Below are positions 177 through 30,935 of a DNA stretch of 32,000 nt, piece by piece (position 1 is the first letter of the stretch; the number at the start of each line of letters is the position of its first letter). Under the pieces are notes generated by a model, which was not told where the DNA came from, made no database searches, and saw nothing but the letters and a program-made list of their open reading frames with translations. The translations under genes and the position numbers were made by a program. Origin of the DNA: Vibrio vulnificus CMCP6 (GTDB lineage: Bacteria; Pseudomonadota; Gammaproteobacteria; Enterobacterales; Vibrionaceae). The stretch is taken from NCBI RefSeq assembly GCF_000039765.1, contig NC_004459.3, positions 2,451,127 to 2,483,126 of the forward strand. Direction: 5' to 3'.

Positions 177-598
177 AAAAGGCAGAAAAGTTCTTTGTTC
201 TAATTTTTTGTTCCCTCTGGCAGTTCGCTTTTCTTAGTCGGCAATCCCGTATTGTCGGCTCTAATTCTTAAATCTCTTCAACCGTAAAACATGCCAAAGT
301 TCGTGGGTTGCCTCATTGGGTTTCAGTGTTGGTTGGTGTTGAGCTTCACTGGCTCAAAGTGTGGAAAGGGCAAGTTAGTCGAAGCTTTCATTATTGCTGT
401 CATTTCGCAGCTTTGAATTTCTCAGGTTCAAAAGCTGCTTTGTCGCGGATAAGTCGCATTTCGTGGTTGTTATAAGTGAGGCTGTAACATAGTGACTTCA
501 GTAGTTCTTGAATCACAAAAAGTCAGTGGGAGATTGGTTGCTTATCGTGTTTAAGGTATTCTGCTTTCAAAGCAAGTTAGTGAGTAAATTAGAAATTT
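177..598 (+). mobile_element. gene-less cassette body (D1; distantly related to families A/B)
   Basis: bounded by attC 1 and 2; no ORF >=60 codons on either strand; shares short blocks (ttctttgttc, tgttccctc, gtcggcaa, gttgcctcatt) with families A/B. Confidence 0.7.
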
Positions 599-695
599 GC
601 CTAACAAAGCATTTAAGAGTGATTCGCAACGCTTGGCAGTTTCGCTTCGCTCAAGTATAGCCAAGCGCCGCTCACACCTTAATGCGGCGTTATAT
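599..695 (+). repeat. attC site 2 (short subtype S, 97 bp)
   Basis: R'' GCCTAAC / R' GTTATAT; central palindrome cgcttggc..gccaagcg. Confidence 0.9.
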
Positions 696-728
696 TAATC
701 AAAAAATTCGAGCACAAAAGGAGTTTCT

Positions 729-1100
729 ATGAACTATGATGTTATCGCTTTGGCATGTGAACAATTAGATTATCGCGATAAGTTACGCCTTGCACAGTTG
801 TTAATTCAGACCGCTCGAAAGGAAGAAGAAACAGTTAACCCTCAAGAGCGAATAATAGAATCAAAACCTTCTATTCCTGAAGCTATTGTAGAGGAGAAAG
901 AAATTGACACTATTTCCTACGTATATGAACGTTTGCTTAAATTAAGACCAGCGAAAGCAAAATCGCTAACGAACTCCATTAAAGCAATGTTTCAGTTTCA
1001 AGGTGGTATTTCTGAAGCAGAAGTTTCCGATATTGTCAGTGAACTCCAACATAGAAAGTTAGTTAAGCTGACTAACAATAAAGTCGATTACAAAGATTAA
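729..1100 (+). CDS. hypothetical protein, 123 aa
   Basis: ATG preceded by SD aaaggag; fills cassette; stop abuts attC 3; no family recognised. Confidence 0.75.
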   Translation: MNYDVIALACEQLDYRDKLRLAQLLIQTARKEEETVNPQERIIESKPSIPEAIVEEKEIDTISYVYERLLKLRPAKAKSLTNSIKAMFQFQGGISEAEVSDIVSELQHRKLVKLTNNKVDYKD

Positions 1101-1228
1101 TATAACAAGCAATTTAAGAGGGATTCACAACGCTTGGCATTTTTGCTTCTACTTCAATTTTAGTGTTTATGGCACAATGATTTAGGTTTGGGTGGAGGCG
1201 TTGTTCACCCCTTAATTGGGCGTTATGT
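1100..1228 (+). repeat. attC site 3 (subtype IV, 129 bp)
   Basis: R'' ATATAAC / R' GTTATGT. Confidence 0.9.
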
Positions 1229-1241
1229 TTTAAGGATAAAA

Positions 1242-1577
1242 ATGAAACATTCAGTTTTTATGAGTTTAGTATTTTTGACTGGGTGTGCTGCTAGTCAGGC
1301 AGCACCAATAGAAGTTCTCAGTTATGAAGCTGATGATAACAATTACACCTTGATAGCTATTAGTGAAAAAAAGCTAACAAGTTCAAATGGTGAAATCGAT
1401 AGTGTTTTCGAGGAAAAAATTAAAGAGCTTTGCCCGTATGGTTATTTAGTTTCGGAACCAACAGAAGATAATGGCCCCGATGGTACATGGCTAAAAAGGC
1501 ACATGGAGTACTATATAATGGCGAACAATGTCAAAAGTGCTCATTCTTACTCTAAAAATGTAAGTTGCACGCTTTGA
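1242..1577 (+). CDS. putative lipoprotein, 111 aa
   Basis: internal ATG of track ORF 1188..1577 lying just past attC; N-terminus MKHSVFMSLVFLTGCAAS has a lipobox (LTGC). Confidence 0.75.
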   Translation: MKHSVFMSLVFLTGCAASQAAPIEVLSYEADDNNYTLIAISEKKLTSSNGEIDSVFEEKIKELCPYGYLVSEPTEDNGPDGTWLKRHMEYYIMANNVKSAHSYSKNVSCTL

Positions 1578-1583
1578 TTACAA

Positions 1584-1710
1584 ACATAACAAAGCGTTTA
1601 AGAGGGATTTGGCACGCGTGGCATTTTCGGTTTGCGTTGGGTTCAGTGATTAAGTCGCTGTGCGGTAGCTATTGTAGTGCGTGCCTGCACCCCTTAACGC
1701 GGCGTTAGTA
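1584..1710 (+). repeat. attC site 4 (subtype II, 127 bp)
   Basis: R'' ACATAAC / R' GTTAGTA. Confidence 0.9.
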
Positions 1711-2131
1711 CGGGTTTGACATCAAAGGTCATAAGTTCTGGTGTTTATCTGTTTTGGCGCTCGTATTTACACCTTTCAGTTAGTGCCTTTCACGATCTTT
1801 CCGGTGGCACTATATGCGGAGTGCTCGCTTTGATTTCACCGTCTACGGCTTCTAACTCTTAGCCTATTTCTTTGGCGCTTCTTCATTTTCGTGGTGTTTT
1901 TTGAGAGAGCCTTGATTACTTTTGGTGTGGCTGTTGAAGTACGAGGAAAGAATCCTTTTTTAATTTAAAGCCAGTGAAAGTAGGGCAGTTCAGTGCATTT
2001 TTCTTCTAGCCAACTTTCGTCTTTCAATCGGGGTAAAGTTTTGTAGCTGCCCGTCTCACTTCAGTGTTCAAAGCCTTTCATATCATGCCACTTTTCAATA
2101 TCTTGGAGCGCATAAATAGAAGTAGCGCATG
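1711..2131 (+). mobile_element. gene-less cassette body (D2, unique sequence)
   Basis: bounded by attC 4 and 5 with matching R'/R'' (GTTAGTA/TACTAAC); no ORF >=60 codons; shares ttctttggcgct block with A/B. Confidence 0.7.
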
Positions 2132-2257
2132 TACTAACAAATTGCTTAAGAGTGATTCGTAACGCGTGGCATTTTTACTTTGCGGTGGCTTATGTGTTTA
2201 AGGCGCCGTGCGGTAGCTTTTGTATTGCGTTACTCACACCTTAGCAAGGCGTTATGT
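2132..2257 (+). repeat. attC site 5 (subtype I variant, 126 bp)
   Basis: R'' TACTAAC / R' GTTATGT. Confidence 0.9.
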
Positions 2258-2271
2258 GTTTGGAGATAGTC

Positions 2272-2616: not shown

Positions 2617-2627
2617 TTGAACCACAC

Positions 2628-5119: not shown

Positions 5120-5239
5120 CAAACTGTTTAAGAGTGATTCGCAACGCGTGGCATTTTTACTATGCGTTGCGTTTAGTGTTTAAGGTGGTATGCGGCGGCT
5201 CAGGTATTGCGTTGCTCACACCTTAACAGGGCGTTAGTT
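5114..5239 (+). repeat. attC site 9 (subtype I, 126 bp)
   Basis: R'' GCCTAAC / R' GTTAGTT. Confidence 0.9.
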
Positions 5240-5720
5240 TGCAAGAGGTAAAACGCAGCTATATCGCAAGATCTAGTGGTAAAAGCTCAAAGTTGACATT
5301 GTCGTATCGGCGTTCAATTTCAGTGTTAATTAGCGTGGTGAAAATCCAAAACTGGCATCGTTGAAAGGGTAAATTTGTTCTTGGTGTTGTGAGTTTTGGG
5401 GTCATTGAGCCGAACTTTTTTCTGAAACTCTGCTCTGTGAGTTTGTTGGTGCAAAAGCCGATTTACTTGCTGAAAGGATGCTTTCTCTGGTGTGGTAAGT
5501 TCAAGTGGTTTCAGTGGCTTTGTTGAAAGTCCGCATTGTGAGATTGGTTATTCAAAAGCTCTTTTTGGTGTTGTGAGTTCGTTTTCTGCGGCGTTGCTTG
5601 TTCCAAGTGGTTTCATTGACAGCTGCTTTGAGACTACGCCTGACTTAAGTGCATCAAAGCACATAATGTTTGTTGTTTGCAAAGTTTAAAATAACGTAAA
5701 ATCAACTCTTTGGGTTTGCA
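5240..5720 (+). mobile_element. gene-less cassette body, family C divergent member (C')
   Basis: 3' half aligns with 15147-15505, 19719-20072 and 30577-30935 (..ggtgttgt.ag..cgttttct.cggcgttg...gttccaagtggtttca..); the 65-codon ORF 5492..5689 is judged non-coding (see rejected). Confidence 0.65.
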
Positions 5721-5846
5721 AACTAACAAACTGCTCAAGAGGGATTCACAACGCGTGGCATTTTCACTATGCGTTGAATTTAGTGATTAAGGTGGTTTTC
5801 GGCGGCTTCGGTATTGCGTTGCTCACCCCTTAGCAGGGCGTTATGC
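5721..5846 (+). repeat. attC site 10 (subtype I, 126 bp)
   Basis: R'' AACTAAC / R' GTTATGC. Confidence 0.9.
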
Positions 5847-6191
5847 TTAATCTCGTAAAATCAGTGATTTAGTGTTTTTCTTTGTTCCCTCGGCTTGTTA
5901 GTTTCGAGTTCGTCGGCAAGTCAGCTTCATAGGGCGCTATTTTCTGGACATCAATTCTTTGGCGCTGGAAATTCAGAGGATTGCCTCAATCAGTTTTCGC
6001 GTAAGCGTGAGGTTAGGGCAGTTGGCTCATTCAGAACTTTGAACTTAGGTTTTTGAGTTTTAGTAGCCAAATTTCAAAGTCAGATTTTCAAAAATCATGA
6101 GTCATTTCAGTTTTTTAGGTTTTGCCTTTTGTTAACTAATCCTAGCCGAGTTAATCTTGGTTTTGGTAAAAATGTGGGCGTTGAAGCTTAA
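5847..6191 (+). mobile_element. gene-less cassette body, family A copy 1
   Basis: homologous to 11891-12235, 23326-23676, 24563-24906 and 29604-29948; no conserved ORF on either strand. Confidence 0.8.
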
Positions 6192-6318
6192 GCATAACAA
6201 AGCGTTAAAGTGGGATTTGGCACGCGTGGCATTTTTAGTTTGCGTTGAGTTCGGTGGTTACGGCACTATGCGGTAGCTTTTGTATTGCGTGCCTGCACCC
6301 CTTAACGCGGCGTTATGT
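6192..6318 (+). repeat. attC site 11 (subtype II, 127 bp)
   Basis: R'' GCATAAC / R' GTTATGT. Confidence 0.9.
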
Positions 6319-6654
6319 TTAATCATGTAAAATCAGTTGGTTGCATCTTTTCTTGGCTTTCTAATTCTGGCTTTGTCGGCAAGTTAACTTCAGTGGTCGC
6401 TGTTTTCTGGACTCCAATTCTTTGGCGCTAAAAATTCAGAGAGTTGCCTCATTAAAATGTGGTGTTTGGGTGAGGTGAGTGCAGCTTGTTCAGTTTCAAC
6501 GTTAGAGCTTCAGCTTTCGTTTTTCACGTAAAGACTCAATGTGAATTCAATCAATTTTATGAGTTAATTCAGTTTTTTAGCCTATGGTTTTGGTGTGCAA
6601 AGGTAAGTCGAGTTAAGCTCTTGGTATCGTAAAACTTAACCCTTTGAGTCTTAA
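6319..6654 (+). mobile_element. gene-less cassette body, family B copy 1
   Basis: homologous to 12363-12708; 5' half related to family A, 3' half distinct. Confidence 0.8.
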
Positions 6655-6781
6655 ACATAACAAGGCGTTCAAGAGGGATTCGTGCCGCGTGGCATTTTTG
6701 GTATGCGGTGAGTTTTGGTGGTGAAAGTGGTCTGCGGAAACTTGGTTTAGGCGGCACTCACCCCTTAACGCAGCGTTATAA
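6655..6781 (+). repeat. attC site 12 (subtype III, 127 bp)
   Basis: R'' ACATAAC / R' GTTATAA. Confidence 0.9.
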
Positions 6782-6801: not shown

Positions 6802-7695
6802 GTGGCAAGCTCTGGTACATATTATTTAGGTCGAGTATTGAAACTTGGTACTCTCGATCAAGAAAAGTTAATGAATGCAATCAAAGAGCCTGTTTCCTTA
6901 TCTTATAGAGGTTCATCTTGGACGTTCATTGACGTCCAAGAAGTTAAGGGTAACGGGGAGCATTATATTTTCGGTCGCCTAAGCAAATACAAGCCGTTAG
7001 GTGAGGTTACTGTCGTAGATACACATCGGAGAACAGAAGAAACACAAATTGAACCTAACTTGAAAGTTGCCTCTAGCCCTTTTGTATATATCCCGTCCCA
7101 CTCGGGTATTGCGTTTCTTAATGTGTATAATCACATTGAACAAAAAGCTTTTGTTAATCGCTTTTGTTCTATTATCGAGGAAACTTATCAACGCTTTTTC
7201 GTTGATTGTGACATTGAGTTAGTCTCAGACTTACGCTCTTTTGCTGCGAAAGTATCATCATTGGATGGTATCTATCATGTTAACGCGAAAATATCTCCTC
7301 CAAACCCAATGTTCGGCTGTCTTTGGGCAGAGTTAAAGGACTACTTAATCAAACGAAACACTGATCGCATGACCGTCGTCGAAGATGCCCCAGAAAGTGA
7401 GCCGCTAAATACAGATCTGCCATATCACATAGAAAAAGCGGCAAACCAGACAGCAGATGAGCAATATGTGTCAGAAGAACCTCTTCCGATCGGGGACGCT
7501 GCAATACTTATGGCAGCAGACGGCTATGGTCATGGAACAGTTAAAGGGAAAAGAGATAATGAAGTTATAACTATTAAAACATCCGAGACAGTAAAGAACT
7601 TTTCCTTCGACAAAAATCCAGAGCCTGATGCTCTTTATCGTAAAGCTCTTGGAATATTTGACGAAATCAAAGAAAAAAGGCACCTGGGTCACTGA
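6802..7695 (+). CDS. hypothetical soluble protein, 297 aa (gene 1 of a two-gene cassette)
   Basis: GTG start 6 nt after SD aggag (6791-6795); no TM segments; motif Y-x-P-x10-Y-N-H at nt 7087-7134; family not recognised. Confidence 0.75.
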   Translation: MASSGTYYLGRVLKLGTLDQEKLMNAIKEPVSLSYRGSSWTFIDVQEVKGNGEHYIFGRLSKYKPLGEVTVVDTHRRTEETQIEPNLKVASSPFVYIPSHSGIAFLNVYNHIEQKAFVNRFCSIIEETYQRFFVDCDIELVSDLRSFAAKVSSLDGIYHVNAKISPPNPMFGCLWAELKDYLIKRNTDRMTVVEDAPESEPLNTDLPYHIEKAANQTADEQYVSEEPLPIGDAAILMAADGYGHGTVKGKRDNEVITIKTSETVKNFSFDKNPEPDALYRKALGIFDEIKEKRHLGH

Positions 7696-8165
7696 TGAAT
7701 CGAATTCTAGATATTTTTCGCTTTACTATTATTTCTCCGGAGTTTGTTGTTATTCTTCTGACGGTTGCAATGACATATAGTTATCCGGAAGTATTTGTAC
7801 TTATAGGTGGAAAACTTAAAGGCAATACAGAACTATGGAAGTTTATCCCCTCATTGCCTGTTATCTTCACTGGCGTGACCTTTAAAGTGGCTCAAAAAGT
7901 TCATGCACCTTTGGAGAATACGTCCAACAAGCAACTTTACGAATGGAGCTCATTCAATAAGGTTTCTGATCGTATAATGGCGTCTTATTTGATTTGTATA
8001 CTTTGTTGTGCCGCTAGTTTTACAATTTGGTTCTTCATGTCAGAGTTGAGTGAACTAATGTTAGGTTCAATATTATTGAGTTCAATCCTAATCTCTGGGT
8101 TAACTACGTTCCAAATTATCTTGGCAGCTCAAAAAATCAGGCAAGTCATAGAGCAATACACATAA
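7695..8165 (+). CDS. small 4-TM membrane protein, 156 aa (gene 2 of a two-gene cassette)
   Basis: ATG overlaps the upstream TGA (TGATG at 7693-7697); four hydrophobic helices by eye. Confidence 0.75.
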   Translation: MNRILDIFRFTIISPEFVVILLTVAMTYSYPEVFVLIGGKLKGNTELWKFIPSLPVIFTGVTFKVAQKVHAPLENTSNKQLYEWSSFNKVSDRIMASYLICILCCAASFTIWFFMSELSELMLGSILLSSILISGLTTFQIILAAQKIRQVIEQYT

Positions 8166-11422: not shown

Positions 11423-11623
11423 CTAAGACGCATGTTTTCTGAGCTCGTGTGGGTAAACTCTCATTCCATTTAAGGTGTTTTCGTACACAGAGAGCTCTTG
11501 AATGTAAGACCAAACGTGAGCGTCTGTGCTGGTTTGTGCCGCTAGACGAGAGATCACAGCGTCGATATTGCGGCCTGCATAATCTTTGTGAGGAACGAAC
11601 AAATCCCTTATAGCTGACAACAT
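11423..11623 (-). CDS. hypothetical protein, 66 aa; the only reverse-oriented cassette gene
   Basis: ATG with strong SD on the - strand (cacaaggagttaactATG); own terminator; track ORF start 11695 lacks an SD. Confidence 0.7.
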   Translation of the reverse strand: MLSAIRDLFVPHKDYAGRNIDAVISRLAAQTSTDAHVWSYIQELSVYENTLNGMRVYPHELRKHAS

Positions 11624-11762
11624 AGTTAACTCCTTGTGTAATAAAATTACAGTGTTGTATAAATAAAACGTAGTAGGGTTTGTTTGTATGATCAAGTTAG
11701 GCGCATAAATTTAATTTAGATTTCATAATTGTAATTTTATGGTCAGACTACGCAGGGTACGC

Positions 11763-11890
11763 ACATAACAAAGCATTTAAGAGTGATTCCCAACGCTTGG
11801 CATTCTCATCTCAAGGTTGGTTTTGTGTTTACGGTGCAATGGTTTAAGTTAGGTGGTTAGCGTTGCTCACACCTTAATGCGGCGTTATGC
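11763..11890 (+). repeat. attC site 19 (subtype IV, 128 bp)
   Basis: R'' ACATAAC / R' GTTATGC. Confidence 0.9.
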
Positions 11891-12235
11891 TTAATCACGT
11901 AAAATCAGTGGTTTATGGTTTTTCTTTGTTCCCTCGGCTGGTTGATTTCGAGTTTGTCGGCAAGTTAGCTTCATTGGGCGCTGTTTTCTGGACATTTATT
12001 CTTTGGCGCTGAAAATTCAGAGCGTTGCCTCAGTCAATTTTCGGGTAAGCGCGAGGTTAGGGAAGTTGGCTCAATCAGCAATTTTATCTTAGGTTTTTGA
12101 GTTTTAGCGGCCGAATTTCAAAGCCCAGATTTCCAAAACTATGAGTCATTTCGGTTTTCTATGTTTTGGCTTTTGTTTGTAAATCAAAGTCGAGTTAATC
12201 TTGTTTCTAGTAAAACGTAACCCATTGAAGCTTAA
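11891..12235 (+). mobile_element. gene-less cassette body, family A copy 2
   Basis: aligns with the other A copies; no conserved ORF. Confidence 0.8.
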
Positions 12236-12362
12236 GCATAACAAGGCGTTTAAGTGGGATTTGGCACGCGTGGCATTTTCAGTTTGCGTTGGGTTCAGTG
12301 GTTACGGTACTGTGCGGTAGCTTTTGTATTGCGTGCCTGCACCCCTTAACGCAGCGTTATGT
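12236..12362 (+). repeat. attC site 20 (subtype II, 127 bp)
   Basis: R'' GCATAAC / R' GTTATGT. Confidence 0.9.
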
Positions 12363-12708
12363 TTAATCACGTAAAATCAGTTGGTTGCACTCTTTTTTGC
12401 TCACGCAGCTTTCAAGTTTTTCCCTTGTCGGCAAGTTAACATCGTTGATCGCTGTTTTCTGGACTCCAATTCGTGGGCGCTAAAAATTCAGAGAGTTGCC
12501 TCATTGAAATGTAGTGTTTGGGTGAGGCGAGTGCAGCTTGCTCAGTTTTAAAGTTAGAGCTTCAGGTTTTCGTTTTCTAACATTGCAACTCAAAGTAAAT
12601 CCAATTAATTTTATTAGTTAATTCAGTTTTTTAGGCTGTGGCTTTGGTGTGTAAAGGTAAGTCGAGTTAAGCTCTTGGTATCGTAAAACTTAACCCTTTG
12701 AGTCTTAA
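12363..12708 (+). mobile_element. gene-less cassette body, family B copy 2
   Basis: aligns with 6319-6654. Confidence 0.8.
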
Positions 12709-12835
12709 ACATAACAAGGCGTTCAAGTGGGATTCATGCCGCGTGGCATTTTTGGTATGCGGTTGGTTTTGGTGGTGAAAGTGGTGTGCGGAAAGCTGGT
12801 TTAGGCGGCATTCACCCCTTAACGCGGCGTTAGGC
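12709..12835 (+). repeat. attC site 21 (subtype III, 127 bp)
   Basis: R'' ACATAAC / R' GTTAGGC. Confidence 0.9.
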
Positions 12836-14560: not shown

Positions 14561-14686
14561 GTATAACAAACTGTTTAAGAGGGATTCGCAACGCGTGGCA
14601 TTTTTACTGTGCGTTGGTTTTAGTGTTTAAGGTGGTATGCAGCGACTTTGGTATTGCGTTGCTCACCCCTTAACAGAGCGTTATGT
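14561..14686 (+). repeat. attC site 23 (subtype I, 126 bp)
   Basis: R'' GTATAAC / R' GTTATGT. Confidence 0.9.
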
Positions 14687-15019
14687 TTAATTACGTAAAA
14701 TCAGCAGCTTGCATCTTTTCTTGGATTTCTAATTTTGGCTTTGTCGGCAAGTTAACTTCAGTGGTCGCTGTTTTCTGGACTCCAAATTGTGGGCGCTAAA
14801 AATTCTGCGAGTTGCCTCAGTCAATTTTCGGATAAGCACGAGGTTAGGGTGGCTGGCTCAATCGGAAATTTGATCTTAGTTTTTTGAATTTTGACTGTTA
14901 AGTTCAAAGTTTGATTTTCAAAATTTTGAGTCGTTTCAGTTTTTAGGTTTTGGCTTTTGTTTGTAAATCAAAGCAGAGTTAATCTTGGTTTTGGTAAAAC
15001 GTAAGCCCTTGAAGCTTAA
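14687..15019 (+). mobile_element. gene-less cassette body, mosaic of B-type 5' half and A-type 3' half
   Basis: up to ~14811-14820 (gttgcctcag) it follows family B; after that it follows family A (..gtcaattttcgg.taagc.cgaggttaggg..). Confidence 0.75.
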
Positions 15020-15146
15020 ACATAACAAGGCGTTCAAGTGGGATTCATGCCGCGTGGCATTTTTGGTATGCAGTGAGTTTTGGCGGTGAAAGTGGTCTGC
15101 GGAAAGTTGGTTTAGGCGGCATTCACCCCTTAACGCAGCGTTAGTT
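15020..15146 (+). repeat. attC site 24 (subtype III, 127 bp)
   Basis: R'' ACATAAC / R' GTTAGTT. Confidence 0.9.
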
Positions 15147-15505
15147 GCCAACGAGGAAAAATGTACCTGAAGCAGAATGTTTAGGGCTAATGTCGATGTG
15201 TTTTTGGCTAGGTTTTCGTATTTCCATTTCTAGTTATTTGGATTTGTGAAAATCGTGTTTTGGTTCCTTGTGCGGTTTGGGTTTTCTGCTGCAGACGCTG
15301 ATTAGCTTGTTGAAAGTCTGCTCTGCTGTATTGTCGTTCCAAAAGGTTTGTTTGGTGTTCAAAGTCCGTTTTCTACGGCGTTGTAAATTCCAAGTGGTTT
15401 CAGTGACAGACGCTTTGAAACTGCGCCTGATTTGAGTTTTCAGAACACATAACCTTAGTGTTGGCAAAGCGGTAATTGACTTCAAATGAAAGCGTTAGGC
15501 TTGGC
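15147..15505 (+). mobile_element. gene-less cassette body, family C copy 1
   Basis: aligns with 19719-20072 and 30577-30935; starts ttagttgccaacgaggaaaa, ends ttggcaactaac. Confidence 0.8.
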
Positions 15506-19627: not shown

Positions 19628-19718
19628 CAAAGCATTTAAGAGTGATTCGCAACGCTTGGCGGTTTCGCTTCGCTCAAGTATAGCCAAGCGTCGCTCACAC
19701 CTTAATGCGGCGTTAGTT
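19622..19718 (+). repeat. attC site 31 (short subtype S, 97 bp)
   Basis: R'' GAATAAC / R' GTTAGTT. Confidence 0.9.
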
Positions 19719-20072
19719 GCCAACGAGGAAAACGCAGCTTAAACAGAATGTTTAGAGTTAAAGTCAGTGTGTTTTTGGTGGGGTTTCGTACTTCAATTTT
19801 AAATCGTTCGGGTTTGTGAAAATCGTTCTCAGGTTTCTTTTGTGGTTGGATTCGTTTCAGAAACCGAATCACTAGTTGAGAGTCAGCTCTGTGACATTGT
19901 CTTTTCAAATGAGCGTTTTGGTGTTGTCAGTTCGTTTTCTACGGCGTTGCGTGTTCCAAGTGGTTTCAGTGACAGGCGCTTTGAAACTGCGCCTGAACTG
20001 AGTTTTTCAAAGCACGTAAAGCAAGTGTTGGCAAAGTGGTAATTAACTTCAAGTCAAAGCTTTAGGTTTGGC
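19719..20072 (+). mobile_element. gene-less cassette body, family C copy 2
   Basis: aligns with C1 and C3; ORF 19842..20042 judged non-coding. Confidence 0.8.
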
Positions 20073-20199
20073 AACTAACAAAGCATTCAAGAGGGATTCA
20101 CAACGCTTGGCAGTTTTGGTTTGAATCAGCTTTAGTGTTTACGGCACAATAGCTTAGGTTGGGTGGTGGCGTTGTTCACCCCTTAATGCGGCGTTATAT
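20073..20199 (+). repeat. attC site 32 (subtype IV, 127 bp)
   Basis: R'' AACTAAC / R' GTTATAT. Confidence 0.9.
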
Positions 20200-20352: not shown

Positions 20353-20493
20353 ATGAGAGTCTTAATTTTATTGTTGGCTACATTGTTTGTGAGTAATTCT
20401 GTCCTAGCTCATGGCGGAGGGTGTCGTAAGAGTTCACCACCTGGTCAATGTTGCCACAAAGACAATAGTACAGGCACAGTACATTGCCACTAG
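20353..20493 (+). CDS. small secreted Cys/His-rich peptide, 46 aa (absent from the ORF track)
   Basis: SD aagga (20342-20346); MRVLILLLATLFVSNSVLA then HGGGCRKSSPPGQCCHKDNSTGTVHCH (4 Cys, 4 His in 27 aa); only plausible ORF in this cassette. Confidence 0.6.
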   Translation: MRVLILLLATLFVSNSVLAHGGGCRKSSPPGQCCHKDNSTGTVHCH

Positions 20494-20672: not shown

Positions 20673-21548
20673 ATGGCAGGTAATTTTCGAGTTCATGCAT
20701 TTGGTATTGTTGGACTAAACGACAAAACTGATGACTTAGAGGACGTTTTAAACGATATACTCGCTGATGATATCGAGGACCGTGTTAGAACAATTGGTCA
20801 ACACGAGATTCGAGTAGAACATATTGAGAAGGTTGACGGTGTATGGCATCTAGACTTTGTGAAATTTCGTGATGTTCATGGACCTGGTAAAGGTTCGAGA
20901 AAGACAAAGGTTTTAGGCTTTGACTTTAAGGCGGGTGAAGTTTTTTGTGAGGAAACTGCATTAATGTACTGCCCTAAGCGCAGTTACATTTTACTTCAGT
21001 ATAACCATCATGGGGTTCGGTATTCTGCTATAGAGGATTACTTCAGTGTTTATAGTGGGAACCCTGATAATCAATATGAGCTTCAAGCCAAGTACGATGA
21101 TGATGTGGATCGCAAGTTTACATCTAGGAAAGCGACTAAGTCGCTAACCTTGGCAATCGATCCTAGGCTGTTAAGCGATAAGGATCGAGACTCAAAGACA
21201 GCATTAGGCAGTGCAATTGAGTTGGGTGACAAGTCAAATGCGTCGAAGATTGAAATTACTATCACAGCAGGCAGAGAGAAGAAGCGTTTTCTTTCAAAGT
21301 TTATCGACGATACTGCGACAAAAATGAAAAAACTTGCAGAGAAAAATCCTGATGCAGTAGGTAAATTGCGTGCAGGAGTTGTTAGCTCGGGCGTCGATGA
21401 AAAACTGCAAGTTTTAGACTTAATTGAAGAGCGTTTGTGCCGAAACTTTACTGATATCCCTGTAGGCAACGATAAACGTTGGCCCAGAGATGCGAGATAT
21501 AAAGCTCTCGAAAGGGCACGACGCGGTTGGAAAAAAATAATGGGTTAA
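20673..21548 (+). CDS. hypothetical soluble protein, 291 aa (gene 1 of a two-gene cassette)
   Basis: SD aagga (20661-20665); no TM segments; motif Y-x-P-x8-Y-N-H (residues 99-112); family not recognised. Confidence 0.8.
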   Translation: MAGNFRVHAFGIVGLNDKTDDLEDVLNDILADDIEDRVRTIGQHEIRVEHIEKVDGVWHLDFVKFRDVHGPGKGSRKTKVLGFDFKAGEVFCEETALMYCPKRSYILLQYNHHGVRYSAIEDYFSVYSGNPDNQYELQAKYDDDVDRKFTSRKATKSLTLAIDPRLLSDKDRDSKTALGSAIELGDKSNASKIEITITAGREKKRFLSKFIDDTATKMKKLAEKNPDAVGKLRAGVVSSGVDEKLQVLDLIEERLCRNFTDIPVGNDKRWPRDARYKALERARRGWKKIMG

Positions 21549-21553
21549 TTTTT

Positions 21554-21976
21554 ATGCACTTATATGTTGAAAAATCATATCCATATGTTTTGGCTTCAGG
21601 TGCCAGCTTTGCGTGGTTCTATTTCAAAATGTCGTTTCCAGTAGGGAACGACATTTTGTCAGCATCTCTAACAATTGGAGCCATACTTACTGGCTTTTTA
21701 GCTACAGCAAAAACATTGCTTATGACTTTAGATACGCCTGTAATGAATAGGATCCGAAGTACAGCTTATGCTCAAGATTTAGCCTCTTACCTTGGTGAAG
21801 CTATTTGGCTATGCTTTGGCTTTTGTGTCTTAGCAATGGTTGGCTACTTTTGTAGTACTAGTAAACTTTGGTACGGGGTTGTTTGGATTTTTATTTCAAT
21901 TGCAGCGTCATTTGCTTTCATTAGGGTGACGACGATCATGCTCAAAATCATTAAGCACCAACCAAGCAAAAGTTAG
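21554..21976 (+). CDS. small 4-TM membrane protein, ~140 aa (gene 2; alternative TTG start at 21527 overlapping gene 1)
   Basis: ATG 6 nt after the upstream stop; four hydrophobic helices by eye; basic C-terminal tail. Confidence 0.75.
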   Translation: MHLYVEKSYPYVLASGASFAWFYFKMSFPVGNDILSASLTIGAILTGFLATAKTLLMTLDTPVMNRIRSTAYAQDLASYLGEAIWLCFGFCVLAMVGYFCSTSKLWYGVVWIFISIAASFAFIRVTTIMLKIIKHQPSKS

Positions 21977-23198: not shown

Positions 23199-23325
23199 AC
23201 ATAACAAGGCGTTCAAGAGGGATTCATGCCGCGTGGCATTTTTGGTTTGCAGTGAGTTTTAGTGGTGAAAGTGGTCTGCGGAAGGTTGGCTTAGGCGGCA
23301 TTCACCCCTTAACGCAGCGTTATGC
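23199..23325 (+). repeat. attC site 36 (subtype III, 127 bp)
   Basis: R'' ACATAAC / R' GTTATGC. Confidence 0.9.
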
Positions 23326-23676
23326 TTAATTACGTAAAATCAGTGGTTTATGGTTTTTCTTTGTTCCCTCAGCTTTTTAGTTTTGTGCTCGTCGGCAAGT
23401 TGGCTTTTTTGAGCGCTGTTTTTCGGACACTTATTCTTTGGCGCTAAAAACTCTGAGAATTGCCTCAATCAATTCTCGGGCAAGCGCGAGGTTAGGGCGG
23501 TTGGCTCAATCAGAAATCCATTTCTAGGTTTTCAAACTTCAAACCAGATTTGCCAAAATTCCGAGCCTGATTATCAAAACTATGATTCATTTCGGTTTTC
23601 TGTGTTTTGGCTTTTGTGTGTAAATCAAAGTCGAGTTAATCTTGGTTCTATTAAAACGTAACCCATTGAAGTTTAA
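23326..23676 (+). mobile_element. gene-less cassette body, family A copy 3 (paired with a subtype III attC rather than II)
   Basis: aligns with the other A copies. Confidence 0.8.
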
Positions 23677-23803
23677 GCATAACAAGGCGTTCAAGAGGGA
23701 TTCATGCCGCGTGGCATTTTTGGTATGCGGTGAGTTTTGGTGGTGAAGGTGGTCTGCGGAAAGTTGGTTTAGGCGGCACTCACCCCTTAACGCAGCGTTA
23801 GCC
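23677..23803 (+). repeat. attC site 37 (subtype III, 127 bp)
   Basis: R'' GCATAAC / R' GTTAGCC. Confidence 0.9.
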
Positions 23804-23871: not shown

Positions 23872-24129
23872 ATGAAAGTAGAACTAGTTACATCACTCAA
23901 ACGCCAAGCAACAAAGATCCTTGCCGATCTCCACGACACTAAAGAACCAGTGTTAATTACCGAACATGGTAAGCCATCGGCATATCTGGTTGATGTTGAT
24001 GATTACGAGTTTATGCAAAATCGTTTAGCGATTCTTGAGGGGATTGCACGAGGTGAACGTGCATTAGCTGACGGTAAAGTGGTGAGTCACGATGAAGCCA
24101 AGGACAAAATGTCAAAATGGCTGAAATAA
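23872..24129 (+). CDS. Phd/YefM-family type II antitoxin, 85 aa
   Basis: ..KEPVLITEHGKPSAYLVDVDDYEFM.. is typical of Phd/YefM; overlaps the downstream toxin gene. Confidence 0.85.
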   Translation: MKVELVTSLKRQATKILADLHDTKEPVLITEHGKPSAYLVDVDDYEFMQNRLAILEGIARGERALADGKVVSHDEAKDKMSKWLK

Positions 24130-24419
24130 TCTGGACTGAGCCAGCGCTATCCGACCTCAATGATATCGCTGAATACATCGCACTTGAAAATATCGTAGCT
24201 GCAAAACAATTGGTTCAAGCGATCTTTTCTAAAGTCGAGCGCTTAGAGGCTTTCCCTGAATCGGGTCGCATTCCGCCTGAACTAGAACATCTAAGTTATC
24301 GTGAAGTTGTAGTTAATCCGTGCCGTATTTTCTATAAACAAGACGGCGACAAAGTATTTATTTTGTTTGTTATGCGTGCTGAGAGAGACTTGCGTAAGTT
24401 CCTATTGAGCAAGCAATAA
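24117..24419 (+). CDS. RelE/ParE-family type II toxin, 100 aa
   Basis: ..IIWTEPALSDLNDIAEYIA..FPESGR.. is the ParE/RelE pattern; 13-nt overlap with the antitoxin gene. Confidence 0.85.
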   Translation: MAEIIWTEPALSDLNDIAEYIALENIVAAKQLVQAIFSKVERLEAFPESGRIPPELEHLSYREVVVNPCRIFYKQDGDKVFILFVMRAERDLRKFLLSKQ

Positions 24420-24434: not shown

Positions 24435-24562
24435 GGCTAACAAACTGTTTAAGAGTGATTCGCAACGCGTGGCATTTTTACTATGCGTTAGGTTTAGTGT
24501 TTAAGGTGTGACATGCGGTGGCTTCGGTATTGCGTTGCTCACACCTTAACAGGGCGTTATGC
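24435..24562 (+). repeat. attC site 38 (subtype I, 128 bp; identical to attC 1 up to the G of R')
   Basis: R'' GGCTAAC / R' GTTATGC. Confidence 0.9.
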
Positions 24563-24906
24563 TTAATCACGTAAAATCAGAGGTTTATGGTTTTTCTTTA
24601 TTCCCTCGGCTGATTGGTTTTGTGCTTGTCGGCAAGTTGGCTTCTGTGAGCGCTGTTTTTCGGACACTTATTCTTTGGCGCTGGAAATTCAGAGAGTTGC
24701 CTCAATCAGTTTTCGCGTAAGCTCGAGGTTAGGGCAGTTGGCTCAATCAGCAATTTGATAGTAGGTTTTTGAGTTTTATCTGCCAAATTTCAAAGTCTCA
24801 TTTTCAAAGATTATGAGTCATTTCAGTTTTTAGGTTTTGCCTTTTGTTAGCTAATCCTAGTCGAGTTAATCTTAGTTTTGGTAAAAATGTGGGCGTTGAA
24901 GCTTAA
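24563..24906 (+). mobile_element. gene-less cassette body, family A copy 4
   Basis: aligns with the other A copies. Confidence 0.8.
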
Positions 24907-25033
24907 GCATAACAAAGCGTTCAAGTGGGATTTGGCACGCGTGGCATTTTTAGTTTGCGTTGAGTTCGGTGATTACGGCACTGTGCGGTAGCTTTTGTAT
25001 TGCGTGCCTGCACCCCTTAACGCGGCGTTATGT
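24907..25033 (+). repeat. attC site 39 (subtype II, 127 bp)
   Basis: R'' GCATAAC / R' GTTATGT. Confidence 0.9.
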
Positions 25034-26560: not shown

Positions 26561-26580
26561 GACATATGGAGGCTAATCAG

Positions 26581-26912
26581 GTGAAATTGAGTTTGATAGC
26601 TTTGCTGTTATGTTTTAGTTCATTTTGTTTTGGAGGCAATTTGGGGAAAGGGAAAGAAGACACCCAACACTTATTTGACTCGGTGCTGCCTTTCTTAAAG
26701 CAGCTGCAAATCGACAATATAGCACCACCGCGGTAGTTTACGATGTTCGTATTATGCTTCCTTCAGGTAAGGCTTCAGATGCAATAGCCGTTAATCTTGA
26801 TCATAATTCTGGCTATTCTATTGTCGTGTATTTGCCTTACAAAAAAGTAAACCAAGCTATAGAGTACGGTGAACTATCAGTTCAAGAAGGTCGTGGAGCA
26901 ATATTTAATTAA
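26581..26912 (+). pseudogene. frameshifted gene for a small secreted/lipo-protein (~110 aa if restored)
   Basis: GTG after SD ggagg gives MKLSLIALLLCFSSFCFGG.. (51 codons, TAG at 26734). The reading continues in another frame from 26733 (VVYDVRIMLPSGK..GAIFN*) to 26912. Confidence 0.55.
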
Positions 26913-27067: not shown

Positions 27068-28036
27068 ATGAGTACGACATTGACTTTAAAAAGTATTGCA
27101 TTAGAAAAATTAAACAGAATACTAAACCCAAATTTTGAAACTAAGTTCATATGGGCGCTACTTGTCGCAGGGTTATCTTTACTGGGGTATCAAAGAGTAG
27201 TTCAATTGGGCTCCAGTATTGAGGTTCTTTCACCTGAGTGGTACGTAAAGTTATCCTTGAGTTCGGGAGCGGACACGTTTTTTGTATTTCTAGGCTTTAT
27301 TTTTGTATTGATTTCTTGTGGACTATTTTATTTAAAATACTATCACCGTGACCTCGATAAGGTAGTAACTTACAAAAGTTTGAGAAAAGCTGCTTCTGCT
27401 ATCAGGCCGTTGTTAGATGAAAATAGACGCATTTTTATGACATTTGGCCCAAACTCAGGCTCAGGCAGTACTGGCGACTTACGTCATGATATGTCGCTGT
27501 GGGAAGAGTTAAAGAAAACCCAAATAGTTCCGAATAACGATAAAATCCGTAATATCTTAGATTCTGTATCTGAGTTTAGTCAAAGCGAACAAGTTACAGT
27601 GTCTGACATTAAGTCTCATATTGAAGCATTTAAGAAACACTGTGAAGATCCGGAATTTGACTATTCAAATAACCAGTTTCCCCAATCATTTGCCGATTTA
27701 ATTTTTTCTTATTGTGCAAAAAAACATAACAACGTAGACAAATACTCTTACTGGTTACGCAATGAAACTCTCGCTGAGAAAGCTAGAATTGAAAATATCC
27801 TGATTTTTGGAAGTGCGTTGTACGGAGAGGAAAAAATAGATGTCGATATTGTTATAAAAACTAATGATTCTTCAATAGAGCAAGTAAGGTCATTTTCAGC
27901 TTATATAACTGAGCTTAAAAATCGTTTTAAGGGCAAGTTTGGTTTAACTCTTCACGCTACAGTTTTTTCTGAACTGGAAGTGAAGTCTTATGAAGAGTTT
28001 ATGCTAAAAATTCATTCAACCAAGAAGGTACTTTAG
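27068..28036 (+). CDS. 2-TM membrane protein with C-terminal minimal nucleotidyltransferase (Pol-beta-like) domain, 322 aa
   Basis: SD aggaga; two TM helices (residues ~27-40 and ~70-88); NTase signature FGSALYGEEKIDVDIVI (G248-S249..D258-x-D260, nt 27809-27847). Confidence 0.7.
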   Translation: MSTTLTLKSIALEKLNRILNPNFETKFIWALLVAGLSLLGYQRVVQLGSSIEVLSPEWYVKLSLSSGADTFFVFLGFIFVLISCGLFYLKYYHRDLDKVVTYKSLRKAASAIRPLLDENRRIFMTFGPNSGSGSTGDLRHDMSLWEELKKTQIVPNNDKIRNILDSVSEFSQSEQVTVSDIKSHIEAFKKHCEDPEFDYSNNQFPQSFADLIFSYCAKKHNNVDKYSYWLRNETLAEKARIENILIFGSALYGEEKIDVDIVIKTNDSSIEQVRSFSAYITELKNRFKGKFGLTLHATVFSELEVKSYEEFMLKIHSTKKVL

Positions 28037-28037
28037 T

Positions 28038-28424
28038 ATGGGGCGAAATCTTCACTATACAATTCCCCGCTTTCTACAAAAGGCACTTGACGAACATACG
28101 AAAGTGCGAGATTGGCAGAGAATCGATCATCCTCAGAACGACAACGATTTTATCTATCGTATCCGACGTACTGATGGACTCTCAGATATAGTTCTACATG
28201 CGGCAGACGACTATAGGTATTTGCTTACGAACTATTTTCAGAAGCCAGATAAAGTTGGGCAAGGTGCTTTTATTCTTATCGCAAGACCTGAAGGTGGCTA
28301 TGCAGATGAGGTGGTCGACATAGCGAAGCAAGATGAAATTAGTATAGGTAAGTTTAGTGCCCTGATGGGAGCCTTATATCGAGAAGACCACTGGAATTAT
28401 GTTCCCAAAGAACGTAGAGAATAA
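28038..28424 (+). CDS. hypothetical protein, 128 aa (gene 2, coupled to the NTase gene)
   Basis: ATG 1 nt after the upstream TAG; mixed alpha/beta-looking sequence; no family recognised. Confidence 0.7.
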   Translation: MGRNLHYTIPRFLQKALDEHTKVRDWQRIDHPQNDNDFIYRIRRTDGLSDIVLHAADDYRYLLTNYFQKPDKVGQGAFILIARPEGGYADEVVDIAKQDEISIGKFSALMGALYREDHWNYVPKERRE

Positions 28425-28550: not shown

Positions 28551-28573
28551 TAAATCATTAACAAGGATGTGTA

Positions 28574-28915
28574 ATGAGAAACAAAAAATGGGTCTTTGCG
28601 GCGATTTTGCTCATTGGTGGCCCTTCACTATTGCCCTTTAGTTTGGAAGTGATTTCTGCAATCGAGTTATTTGGCCTTTTGGGTTTATGGACAATTTACT
28701 CATCCTATGCGGAATATTTGGTGAATCATCCTAGATTCAAAAGAGGTGTTTGCTTAGCGACTAGTTGGGACTTTCAGCCTCAGATGCTGTTCTCTCCAAG
28801 TGAGCTTAAGGCATGTCCCCAGCTAATTTTTCATATGCTTCCAGTTCAAAGCGCTATGGTTTGGACTCTGAATATTCTGTTTTGGGGCGGTGTGGCTTGG
28901 TGCTACATAATTTAA
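28574..28915 (+). CDS. small membrane protein, 113 aa
   Basis: SD aagga; about three hydrophobic helices. Confidence 0.7.
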   Translation: MRNKKWVFAAILLIGGPSLLPFSLEVISAIELFGLLGLWTIYSSYAEYLVNHPRFKRGVCLATSWDFQPQMLFSPSELKACPQLIFHMLPVQSAMVWTLNILFWGGVAWCYII

Positions 28916-29041
28916 GCTAACAAGGCGTTCAAGAGGGATTCATGCCGCGTGGCATTTTTGGCATGCGGTGAGTTTTGGTAGTAAAAGTGGTCTGCGGAAA
29001 GCTGGTTTAGGCGGCATTCACCCCTTAACGCAGCGTTATAT
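28915..29041 (+). repeat. attC site 44 (subtype III, 127 bp)
   Basis: R'' AGCTAAC / R' GTTATAT. Confidence 0.9.
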
Positions 29042-29476
29042 TTATCCACGTATTTCCATAATCCATTTGATGCTTATGTATGTGTGTAGTTATAATCAGA
29101 ACACGCAACTTGGGCAAGGCTCTTTTTGCTAGAAGTGCATTCGCATCTTAGATGGTCAGGCGACTGTTGATGATAGTTATGTTGAATGGTTGCACACTTT
29201 GCTGCTTTCACTGCAACTGAGAGCAAATAATCGTTGGTAAGGATTGCAAAACCTTATTCAGCGCGTGACGGCCACTCACGTAAAATATCAGGATTAACTC
29301 TTGAGTCGGCTCGAGAATTATCAGGCGAACTTTATGTTTACTGTTAAAACTCGAAATATAGTGGTTTCAATTGATGTTGCTGCAATAATTAGGGCTTCGG
29401 CTTTATTGTTGGTGCTTTTTTTGTAACCTTTGGTTGGGGCATCTTTGCCCCAAACCATAAATCTCCACCAATATAA
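29042..29476 (+). mobile_element. gene-less cassette body (E, unique)
   Basis: no ORF >=60 codons that stays outside attC; contains hairpins and a 30-codon hydrophobic ORF (29334-29426). Confidence 0.65.
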
Positions 29477-29603
29477 ATATAACAAAGCGTTTAAGACGGA
29501 TTCCCAACGCTTGGCATTCTCAGTTTGTTTCAACTTTAGTGTTTACGGCTCAATGCCTTAAGTTTGGTGGCCGCGTTGCTCACCACTTAACGCGGCGTTA
29601 TGC
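29477..29603 (+). repeat. attC site 45 (subtype IV, 127 bp)
   Basis: R'' ATATAAC / R' GTTATGC. Confidence 0.9.
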
Positions 29604-29948
29604 TTAATCGCGCAAAATCAGTGGTTTATGGTTTTTCTTTGTTCCCTCGGCTGATTAGCTTCGAGCTAGTCGGCAAGTTGACTTAATTGGGCGCTGCTTT
29701 TCGGACTCTTATTCTTTGGCGCTGAAAATTCAGAGAATTGCCTCAATCAATTTTCAGGTAAGCGCGAGGTTAGGGTGGCTGGCTCAATCAGCAATTTGAT
29801 CTTAGGTTTTTGATTTTTAGCAACCAAATTTCAAAGTCTGATTTTCAAAAATTATGAGTTATTTCAGTTTTTTAGGTTTTACCTTTTGTTAGCTAATCCT
29901 AGCCGAGTTAATCTTGGTTTTGGTAAAAATGTGGGCGTTGAAGCTTAA
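29604..29948 (+). mobile_element. gene-less cassette body, family A copy 5
   Basis: aligns with the other A copies. Confidence 0.8.
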
Positions 29949-30075
29949 GCATAACAAAGCGTTTAAGTGGGATTTGGCACGCGTGGCATTTTCAGTTTGC
30001 GTTGAGTTCGGTGGTTACGGCACTGTGCGGTAGCTTTTGTATTGCGTGCCTGCACCCCTTAACGCGGCGTTATAT
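29949..30075 (+). repeat. attC site 46 (subtype II, 127 bp)
   Basis: R'' GCATAAC / R' GTTATAT. Confidence 0.9.
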
Positions 30076-30107
30076 GCTAATTATGTCCACTAAACTAAAG
30101 GTGCTTT

Positions 30108-30443
30108 ATGGAACTAGATAAATTTGTAACAAAGACATTATTGATGATATCGAAGGGTGTTTATGATGCTCAAAATAGTAGTCCCGAATATGGCGTTAAA
30201 GTAAACGAGCTTCCAATTACCAGCTTTTCTCGCAATGATCCATTGTCTCAAAATGGAACTTTCATGCAGAATGTTACTTTCGACGTCGCAATTACTACTG
30301 AAGAGGTATCTGAAGGAGATGCGAAAATATCAGTTTTGGGTCTTTCTTTGGGTAAAAATGGCAGTTTCACAGATGTGTACTCATCGCGGATAAAATTTAC
30401 AATCCCTCTATCTTTTCCCAGATCAAGTCTAGATAAACAATAG
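30108..30443 (+). CDS. hypothetical protein, 111 aa, possibly trypco2-like
   Basis: N-terminal helix, then NVTFDVAITTEEVSEGDAKISVLGLSLGKNGS..SSRIKFTIPL; this resembles my recollection of trypco2 (trypsin-co-occurring domain 2) proteins. Confidence 0.6.
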   Translation: MELDKFVTKTLLMISKGVYDAQNSSPEYGVKVNELPITSFSRNDPLSQNGTFMQNVTFDVAITTEEVSEGDAKISVLGLSLGKNGSFTDVYSSRIKFTIPLSFPRSSLDKQ

Positions 30444-30449
30444 GCACGC

Positions 30450-30576
30450 ATATAACAAGGCGTTCAAGTGGGATTCATGCCGCGTGGCATTTTTGGTATG
30501 CGGTGAGTTTTGGCGGTGAAAGTGGTCTGCTGGAAGTTGGTTTGAGCGGCACTCACCCCTTAACGCGGCGTTAGTT
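30450..30576 (+). repeat. attC site 47 (subtype III, 127 bp)
   Basis: R'' ATATAAC / R' GTTAGTT. Confidence 0.9.
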
Positions 30577-30935
30577 GCCAACGAGGAAAAACGTACCTAA
30601 AGCGGAATGTTAAGGGCTAATGTTCGTGTGTTTGGCTAGGTTTTCGTATTTCAATTTCTAACTATTTGGGTTTGTGAAAATCGAGTTTTGGTTTCTTGTG
30701 TGATTGGATTTTCTGTTTCGTAAGCTTATTTGGGTGTTGAAAGTCAGCTCGGTTAAATTATATCTGTCCAAAAGAGCTTTTTGGTGTTGTTAGCCCGTTT
30801 TCTACGGCGTTGTATGTTCCAAGTGGTTTCAGTGACAGGCGCTTTGAAACTACGCCTGATTCGAGTGTTCCAAAACACGTAAAGCTAGTGTTGGCAAAGC
30901 GGTAATAAACTCCAGATCCTAGCCTTGAGCTTGGC
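30577..30935 (+). mobile_element. gene-less cassette body, family C copy 3
   Basis: aligns with C1 and C2. Confidence 0.8.

Follow-up and report, generated by a model that had tools for sequence, protein, structure and literature searches.

Gene-less cassettes in a segment of the Vibrio vulnificus CMCP6 superintegron form widespread non-coding families related to cassettes with promoter activity

The window analysed here (the whole stretch of DNA, 32,000 nt) is an internal piece of the chromosome 1 superintegron of Vibrio vulnificus CMCP6 (CP037931), in which 15 of 48 complete cassettes were found to be gene-less. The placement follows from a 307-aa cassette protein that recurs without any difference on CP037931.1, the record of CMCP6 chromosome 1 (PMC6639608), and from locus L001, which is identical to positions 2849–23772 of the window. 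The cassette anatomy of these 15 units, their non-coding status, a block-wise constraint on their sequence and their homology to experimentally tested cassettes were established. The bodies are read as non-coding promoter cassettes, with a probability of about 0.55. The observation itself is not new, because the gene-less cassettes of this genome were described by Boucher et al. (2006; BMC Evol Biol 6:3, PMC1382264) and homologues of them were tested by Blanco et al. (2024; NAR 52:2961, PMC11014356).

Cassettes were delimited with a profile hidden Markov model (HMM) trained on nine attC sites, which located 49 sites, every one of them on the + strand. All 15 gene-less bodies were followed, each by its own attC (93–125 nt) in the orientation of its neighbours, and the boundaries agreed within 1–4 nt with the 15 bodies listed in an earlier reading of the same DNA (the sequence-only reading). 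The longest open reading frame (ORF) per body, on either strand, was 38–83 aa, and several of these extended into attC; no ORF >50 aa was present in six bodies and the other nine held ORFs of chance size (53–83 aa). Period-3 composition gave a mean z of 2.95 for the coding cassettes and of −0.53 for the 15 gene-less ones, with the signal partly kept in cassettes 44 (z = 2.68) and 9 (z = 1.7), which could be decayed genes. By the definition of Blanco et al. (no ORF of at least 70 aa from ATG, GTG or TTG and no annotated gene) 13 of the 15 are gene-less. Two fall outside it: cassette 24, where a TTG start on the − strand opens an 83-aa ORF absent from its homologues, including the other family C copies, and cassette 44, whose 70-aa ORF extends into attC. 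Cassettes 32, 41 and 18 also lack a long + strand ORF, yet look coding or recently broken, so that the count stays at 15. The gene-less share given by the sequence-only reading was thus upheld by the attC profile, the ORF lengths and the codon-periodicity test.

The bodies were grouped by all-versus-all BLASTN. Family A consists of cassettes 10, 19, 36, 38 and 45 (mutual identity 75–89%) and family B of cassettes 11 and 20 (87%), while cassette 23 is a mosaic, B-like to about column 140 and A-like thereafter. Families A and B were treated as one superfamily (A/B) because they are 68–70% identical to each other. Family C comprises cassettes 24, 31 and 47 (77–81%), with which cassette 9 (C′) shares only its 3′ 130–200 nt; cassettes 1, 4 and 44 are singletons within the window. 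The same search, which gave no paralogue within the window for any coding cassette, reproduced the earlier assignment of twelve bodies to families (five A, two B, an A/B mosaic, three C and C′).

In the study of Blanco et al., 29 gene-less cassettes drawn from four species of Vibrio were synthesised, and their promoter activity was assayed in both orientations. The sequences in their Supplementary Table S1 were compared with the window by BLASTN, a type of search proposed in the sequence-only reading, and 13 of the 15 bodies proved homologous to tested cassettes, only cassettes 4 and 44 being without a counterpart. Family A matched V1, V4, V7, V8, V10 and V12 (74–90% identity), family B matched V2, V3, V5, V6, V9, V11 and V13 (77–82%), family C matched C1 of V. 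cholerae (88%) and P2 (81–83%), cassette 9 matched P3 (87%) and cassette 1 matched P1 and P4 (77–79%). All 13 V. vulnificus cassettes of that study fall in the A/B superfamily, a point absent from the paper, and C2 of V. cholerae is an A/B relative (nhmmer, E = 1e-34). Sense-strand promoter activity was reported at 5–20-fold for 11 of the 13 V cassettes (V7 and V12 were inactive) and at 8–28-fold for P1, P2 and P4 (P3 had none), and lacZ control fragments, which are not T-rich, gave no reporter signal; C2 increased transcription in its native context, and a downstream silent resistance cassette was switched on by promoter cassettes to >512-fold trimethoprim resistance (Blanco et al., 2024). 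The tested cassettes resemble the window bodies in size, in attC types and in their T-rich sense strand; they come from strain FDAARGOS_663 and other species instead of CMCP6, and they were treated singly, the family grouping being added here. ORF-less cassettes of Treponema integrons are also reported to have promoter activity in reporter assays (Tansirichaiya et al., 2019; Sci Rep 9:8388, PMC6557892); they are alike in these two respects, with unrelated sequences, phylum and integron architecture, no homology being expected.

The array of the same genome, and the same phenomenon, had been described by Boucher et al. (2006), who counted 107 of 219 CMCP6 cassettes as non-coding (no ORF >150 bp and no BLASTX match). 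One of their non-coding families had 45 copies in CMCP6 and 34 in strain YJ016, and is presumably the A/B superfamily. Homologues in other vibrios were >80% identical, showed no synonymous-site pattern and were not found outside the vibrios, and two hypotheses were offered: selfish elements, or promoters or transcribed RNAs (Boucher et al., 2006). Whole-length homologues lacking a synonymous pattern were likewise obtained here, as 65 (A/B) and 60 (C) full-length copies. In contrast to that report, full-length A/B copies were found beyond the vibrios, in two Pseudoalteromonas genomes; the common T>A skew, the statistics of block-wise conservation and the ATG-initiated ORF set out below are also absent from it. 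Whether these families had been described, which the sequence-only reading left open, is therefore answered by the two papers, in the second case through homologues.

An exact-pattern scan (one genome per species) found an A/B block in at least nine Vibrio species (V. proteolyticus, V. mimicus, V. floridensis, V. metoecus, V. cholerae, V. cincinnatiensis, V. fujianensis, V. anguillarum and Vibrio sp. S9_S30) and in the two Pseudoalteromonas genomes. In the loci fetched, nhmmer gave 86 A/B matches, 73 of them full length, of which 65 came from genomes other than CMCP6. A scan of marine metagenomes with a family C block yielded 59 loci, which contained 60 distinct full-length C copies, 12 of cassette-9 type, ten of cassette-4 type and several of cassette-1 type. 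The families were common to different species at 80–93% identity, so that the conservation beyond CMCP6 that had been looked for is present across Vibrio, in two Pseudoalteromonas and in metagenomes. In both Pseudoalteromonas loci (L020:5571–5919, − strand; L033:5264–5611, + strand) a full-length A/B body is the last unit of the attC array, as it is in a V. floridensis contig (L024:117–453, − strand); these terminal bodies keep R″ (GCATAAC or ACAAAAC) and no attC follows. Among all 49 sites of the window at least five attC sequence types coexist, two of them used by family A; A/B bodies carry a third, VCR-like attC in V. fujianensis, V. cincinnatiensis, V. metoecus and V. anguillarum, and V. 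cholerae C1 carries a V. parahaemolyticus-like attC. Judged from the sequences, such mixing would fit transfer of whole cassettes between species.

Constraint on the bodies was measured from per-column changes, obtained as Fitch counts on neighbour-joining trees. The changes were over-dispersed (variance/mean 3.75 for A/B and 3.63 for C), with 66 (A/B) and 36 (C) columns free of change where a Poisson distribution predicts about 3.5, and conserved columns were clustered (lag-1 autocorrelation about 0.3, p < 0.001). Ten-column windows ranged from 10 changes at AGTTAATCTT, 14 at GTCGGCAAGT and 15 at TTGCCTCAAT to 115 at CGGCTTTTTA. Invariant blocks of 8–12 nt (GTCGGCAAG, TTGCCTCA, GAGTTAATCT and CCAAGTGGTTTCAGT) lie deep in the bodies, beside windows with 5–10 times more changes. 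The A/B set of invariant blocks consists of GTCGGCAAG, GGCGCT-RRAAAYTC, TTGCCTCA, TATGAGTCATTTC and GAGTTAATCT, and that of family C of CCAAGTGGTTTCAGT and a CAGGCGC hairpin. The clustering of substitutions and the blocks bear out the earlier suggestion that the copies are constrained at the sequence level. This is good but not conclusive evidence of selection on the bodies, because recombination and alignment error can inflate such statistics.

As promoter cassettes, the bodies would belong to a few old, horizontally shared, paralogous families of non-coding cassettes in Vibrio superintegrons, each body being moved, duplicated and exchanged between species together with its own attC, presumably by integrase-mediated attC recombination. 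They encode neither a selected protein nor a structured RNA; their main contribution would most likely be weak initiation of transcription on the sense (+) strand inside the body, with transcripts reading through attC into the next cassettes and expression thereby restarted far from the Pc promoter. From the behaviour of the homologues we infer that the CMCP6 copies start transcription themselves and are kept for that activity.

Several points weigh against this reading. A scan for the sigma-70 consensus gave 46 matches in the window, against about 65 in shuffled sequence, and only three on the + strand of gene-less bodies; since no enrichment was seen, the reading rests on the tested homologues and not on the sequence. 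In silico prediction of these promoters fails according to Blanco et al., who also found two A-type homologues (V7 and V12) and P3 inactive, recorded scattered start sites, suspected spurious initiation in AT-rich DNA, and used V. cholerae in place of V. vulnificus as the host of their reporters, which sat on a multicopy plasmid. An array of which half is non-coding (107/219), with gene-less cassettes frequently adjacent to each other, goes beyond the needs of a transcription 'booster', and the Pseudoalteromonas copies at array ends have neither an attC nor a downstream cassette to serve. Two finer candidates were rejected: a conserved sigma-70 promoter in family A, (T/C)GGACA-16 nt-GAAAAT, flagged in cassette 19 (the V7 starts do not lie downstream of it and it is not enriched), and a base that would tell the inactive V7 and V12 apart from V1, V4, V8 and V10, which are active (a single column qualifies, without significance).

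The main rival to promoter cassettes is selfish spread, which is possible at odds well short of even. Selfish or neutral passengers would persist and multiply through good attC sites at low cost, the similarity of their copies would reflect recent spread and gene conversion, and promoter activity would be an accident of AT-rich DNA; this was one of the two possibilities of Boucher et al. (2006). The copy numbers agree with it (eight A/B copies in the 48 cassettes, up to five per 7-kb V. floridensis contig and the 45- and 34-copy family of CMCP6 and YJ016), as do the common mosaics of subfamilies (cassette 23 and loci L016, L033 and L009) and the frequent adjacency of gene-less cassettes (9-10-11, 19-20, 23-24 and 44-45), whose placement looks random (10 runs against 10.6 expected from the cassette table). 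The bodies carry neither a coding nor a structural signal, and in the tested homologues start sites are scattered and some copies inactive (Blanco et al., 2024). A selfish cassette would need its attC alone, yet the invariant 8–12-nt blocks lie deep in the bodies, and their position beside 5–10-fold more variable windows is not explained by recent spread or by uniform gene conversion. Nor was there any sign of a recombination advantage, because attC types and R′/R″ pairing match those of the coding cassettes. At correctly anchored sites the R′/R″ complementarity of the gene-less cassettes is 8–11 bp, and pairing of 9–12 bp is general in the array, coding cassettes included (part of the pairing rows were mis-anchored on a second GTT). 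Extended pairing special to gene-less cassettes was accordingly rejected (equal in coding cassettes; Mann–Whitney p = 0.82), as was a special attC type, the attC clusters being common to coding cassettes, and as were bodies derived from degenerate attC copies, since the attC profile matched inside no body even at E ≤ 50.

The gene-less cassettes may also be more than accidental promoters: each could be a dedicated module of non-coding DNA that is read by a particular factor of the host or of the integron, which we hold to be unlikely. The gene-less bodies contain 0.369 T and 0.235 A (AT skew −0.221), against a skew of +0.001 in coding cassettes, which confirms the T-richness of the + strand noted from the sequence (−0.22 versus 0.00). 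The T>A skew was present in each of the 30 published cassettes, also in those whose families are unrelated to the window's; strong skew was seen in A/B, C, the P1/P4 type, cassette 4, V. cholerae C3–C10 and V. fischeri F2/F3, which are unrelated families. The attC sites themselves have a skew of −0.20. Four-fold degenerate sites of 33 neighbouring genes gave −0.13 and the untranslated parts of coding cassettes +0.10, so that the skew is only partly mutational background, and plain background was rejected. This common skew, the invariant 8–12-nt blocks and short motifs recurring between families (GGCAA/TTGCC, TTCTTTGGCGCT and CTGAAAATTCAG) fit a dedicated module. Shared 8-mers between families, at 2–3 times the coding-cassette background, were discarded as confounded by composition. 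If it were real, such a module might prevent the termination of long untranslated transcripts, or might shape the single-strand folding and recombination of the array.

A hidden or decayed gene was sought in the A/B superfamily. Every A/B copy starts TTATGY, and the ATG, which lies within the R′ box, was invariant in 73 of 73 full-length copies. In about 70% of them its frame stayed open for 41 codons or more (41–110 codons), and in about 30% it was truncated or frameshifted; in the window it was open for 38–53 codons in five of the eight A/B copies. The statement of the sequence-only reading that no ORF is conserved between copies is thus not literally correct; the ORF shows no selection as a protein. 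Codon positions of the ATG ORF were equally variable (0.556, 0.505 and 0.511 bits), and no window showed a period-3 variability of substitutions in 71 A/B copies. The ratio of nonsynonymous to synonymous polymorphism (pN/pS) was 0.79, against 0.69 and 0.79 in the off-frames (54 copies), and for six intact 110-codon copies it was 0.67, against 1.04 and 0.55; amino-acid identity among intact 110-codon copies (66–88%) was always below nucleotide identity (82–93%). An AlphaFold2 model of the 110-aa product (17-sequence alignment) had a predicted local distance difference test score (pLDDT) of 53 and a predicted template-modelling score (pTM) of 0.27. As far as these sequences indicate, no purifying selection acts on the open frame, and the conserved small ORF under such selection that had been looked for was found as an ORF, with a pN/pS no different from that of the off-frame controls. 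A small hydrophobic or type-I-toxin-like peptide from the R′ ATG was rejected as well, the ORF being common but unselected and its model poor. The invariance of the ATG is accounted for by the pairing of R′ (GTTATGC) with R″ (GCATAAC).

Descent of the A/B bodies from a gene of about 110 codons that started at the R′ ATG and filled the body, most copies being pseudogenes and a few perhaps still making a small hydrophobic peptide, is unlikely. For it speak, besides the invariant ATG and the frequently open frame, a chance of about 0.001 for a 110-codon open frame at the given base composition, and a profile of the ATG-ORF peptide that matched 452 'hypothetical protein' clusters (53–110 aa) in public data; the full 110 aa are reached in V. 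cholerae, V. parahaemolyticus, V. navarrensis and V. cidicii, and further hosts include V. vulnificus and V. anguillarum. The residual period-3 signal of cassettes 9 and 44 points the same way, as does P3, the homologue of cassette 9, which was reported to match a V. alginolyticus protein of 128 aa (90% identity, three stop codons; Blanco et al., 2024). On the other side stand the R′/R″ pairing, the equal variability of codon positions, the off-frame controls and the poor model just given; in addition, no Pfam domain is recorded for any of the 452 matches, a T-rich, A-poor strand has few stop codons anyway, and Boucher et al. also saw no synonymous-site pattern. The 452 clusters are probably annotations of A/B non-coding cassettes, that is, artefacts. 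Descent from a 110-codon gene is possible, yet irrelevant to present function. The families of C and of cassettes 9, 4 and 1 showed no codon periodicity and no shared frame (60, 12, 10 and several copies, respectively); one marginal periodicity window (p = 0.017) occurred within columns 1–90 of the cassette-9 family, whose ORFs are broken differently across the 12 copies.

A small regulatory RNA (sRNA), sense or antisense, acting through conserved structure or base-pairing, is highly improbable: transcripts of non-coding cassettes are detectable in V. rotiferianus DAT722, start sites lie inside the homologues (Blanco et al., 2024) and a family C alignment of six sequences had z = −3.8 against column shuffles on the − strand, but the whole window was without an Rfam match at E ≤ 1 and the family C signal vanished with 60 sequences. 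RNAalifold consensus energies were near zero in the large alignments: on the + strand they came to −4.1 kcal/mol (72 A/B copies) and −9.5 kcal/mol (60 C copies), on the − strand to −3.3 and −7.6 kcal/mol, respectively. With A/B column-shuffle z-scores of −0.2 and −0.3, a structured RNA was rejected on both strands. Family C does possess a 7-bp GC-rich hairpin, CAGGCGC-TTTGAAACT-GCGCCTG, followed by a T-rich tail (15407–15429, 19973–19995 and 30836–30858), which is terminator-like on the + strand, lies about 80 nt before attC and was missed by the terminator scan because of its 9-nt loop; this could favour an sRNA, but its variants showed no compensatory changes. The sequence- or RNA-level function proposed in the sequence-only reading was therefore borne out as to constraint and, through the published assays on homologues, promoter activity, and it failed as to a structured sRNA; the sequence itself showed no promoter enrichment. 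A non-coding cassette with an RNA-level function is reportedly known from a Xanthomonas integron (sRNA-Xcc1). Unlike it, the Vibrio families have no conserved structure or Rfam match.

Coordinates and relatives of the 15 bodies are collected in Table 1.

Table 1. Gene-less cassette bodies of the window, with positions in the window and nucleotide identity to other copies
Cassette	Type	Body	Strand	Own attC	Remarks	Identity
1	P1/P4-type	176–601	+	602–694	Longest ORF 55 aa	P4 78.5% over 405 nt, P1 76.9% (BLASTN)
4		1709–2134	+	2135–2256	Longest ORF 48 aa	Metagenome contigs 72–88%; loci L070, L087 and L102 86–88%
9	C′, P3-type	5238–5723	+	5724–5845		P3 86.7% over 270 nt (BLASTN); V. mimicus L008 and metagenome copies 89%, full length
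10	Family A	5846–6194	+	6195–6317	ATG ORF stops after 9 codons	Cassettes 19, 38 and 45 84–87%, V7 82.6% (BLASTN)
11	Family B	6318–6657	+	6658–6780		Cassette 20 86.6%, V3 and V13 82% (BLASTN)
19	Family A	11890–12238	+	12239–12361	41-codon ORF from ATG at 11887	V7 88% (BLASTN)
20	Family B	12362–12711	+	12712–12833	ORF frameshifted after 26 codons	V2 and V3 ~80% (BLASTN)
23	B/A mosaic	14686–15022	+	15023–15144		5′ 140 nt: B-type V3 and V13 82–84%; nt 59–337: A-type V12 82%
24	Family C	15145–15508	+	15509–15632	Conserved hairpin 15407–15429	V. cholerae C1 88% over 367 nt, P2 80.5% (BLASTN)
31	Family C	19717–20075	+	20076–20198		P2 81%; metagenome copies up to 91%
36	Family A	23325–23679	+	23680–23801		V10, V4 and V1 89–90% (BLASTN)
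38	Family A	24562–24909	+	24910–25032	53-codon ORF 24559–24720	Cassette 45 89% (BLASTN)
44	Orphan	29041–29479	+	29480–29602	Period-3 z = 2.68	
45	Family A	29603–29951	+	29952–30074		Cassettes 10 and 38 87–89% (BLASTN)
47	Family C	30575–30938	+	30939–31061		P2 82.5%; metagenome locus L076 93%

The 5′ half of cassette 1 is a distant A/B relative, the A/B profile matching its positions 19–186 (nhmmer, E = 1.2e-6). Cassette 4 is not a true singleton, because copies of it recur in metagenome contigs. Cassette 9 and P3 contain a tandem duplication of the ~95-nt module common to family C (window 5423–5620), and cassette 9 accordingly gave two overlapping BLASTN matches to that family. Two partial A/B units also lie inside one cassette in V. 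cholerae C7 and at loci L006 and L007. Internal duplication thus appears, from these sequences, to enlarge non-coding cassettes. For cassette 44, related arrays totalling 590 kb held no homologous DNA, and 1.84 billion representatives gave no credible protein homologue (one marginal match, E = 7e-4); with no Pfam match either, a pseudogene of a known protein was rejected.

Credible genes of the window are nearly all on the + strand, a possible exception being the 90-aa − strand ORF of cassette 18. The sole plausible product of the 310-bp cassette 32 is a 46-aa peptide, MRVLILLLATLFVSNSVLAHGGGCRKSSPPGQCCHKDNSTGTVHCH (window 20353–20493), with a signal-peptide-like N-terminus and four cysteines. 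Cassette 41 (26566–26912) has a strong period-3 signal (z = 3.75) and two adjacent + strand ORFs, of 56 and 52 aa, whose frames differ; its first ORF has a signal-peptide-like start, and the cassette looks like a secreted-protein gene broken by a frameshift. To our knowledge the prevailing view is that pseudogenes are rarely found in cassettes, which makes cassette 41 unusual. Cassettes 43 (28574–28915) and 18 (11423–11695, − strand) were counted as coding but gave no period-3 signal (z = −0.3 and −0.8), and it is uncertain whether they are coding; cassette 43 equals the gene-less cassettes in T-richness and its 113-aa ORF is membrane-protein-like.

Cassette 37 (23872–24419) encodes a Phd/YefM antitoxin (Pfam E = 1e-15) and a ParE toxin (E = 1e-19) with a 13-nt overlap, both on the + strand in the orientation of the array. 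Three cassettes are unusually long (about 1.35–1.39 kb), namely 12 (6802–8165), 33 (20673–21976) and 42 (27068–28424). Each holds two overlapping or abutting genes (DUF4747 and a 156-aa ORF, DUF6731 and a 149-aa ORF, and ORFs of 322 and 128 aa, respectively), forming two-gene modules of unassigned function.

Nothing categorically new is added by this analysis to the published picture. Its additions are modest: the cassettes that have been tested belong to a few widespread families, so that the invariant blocks can be mutated comparatively; hundreds of 'hypothetical proteins' on these cassettes are probably not proteins; and the families extend beyond Vibrio. Half of the CMCP6 superintegron consists of such cassettes, and the expressed share of a 150-kb 'silent' gene reservoir therefore depends on their role.

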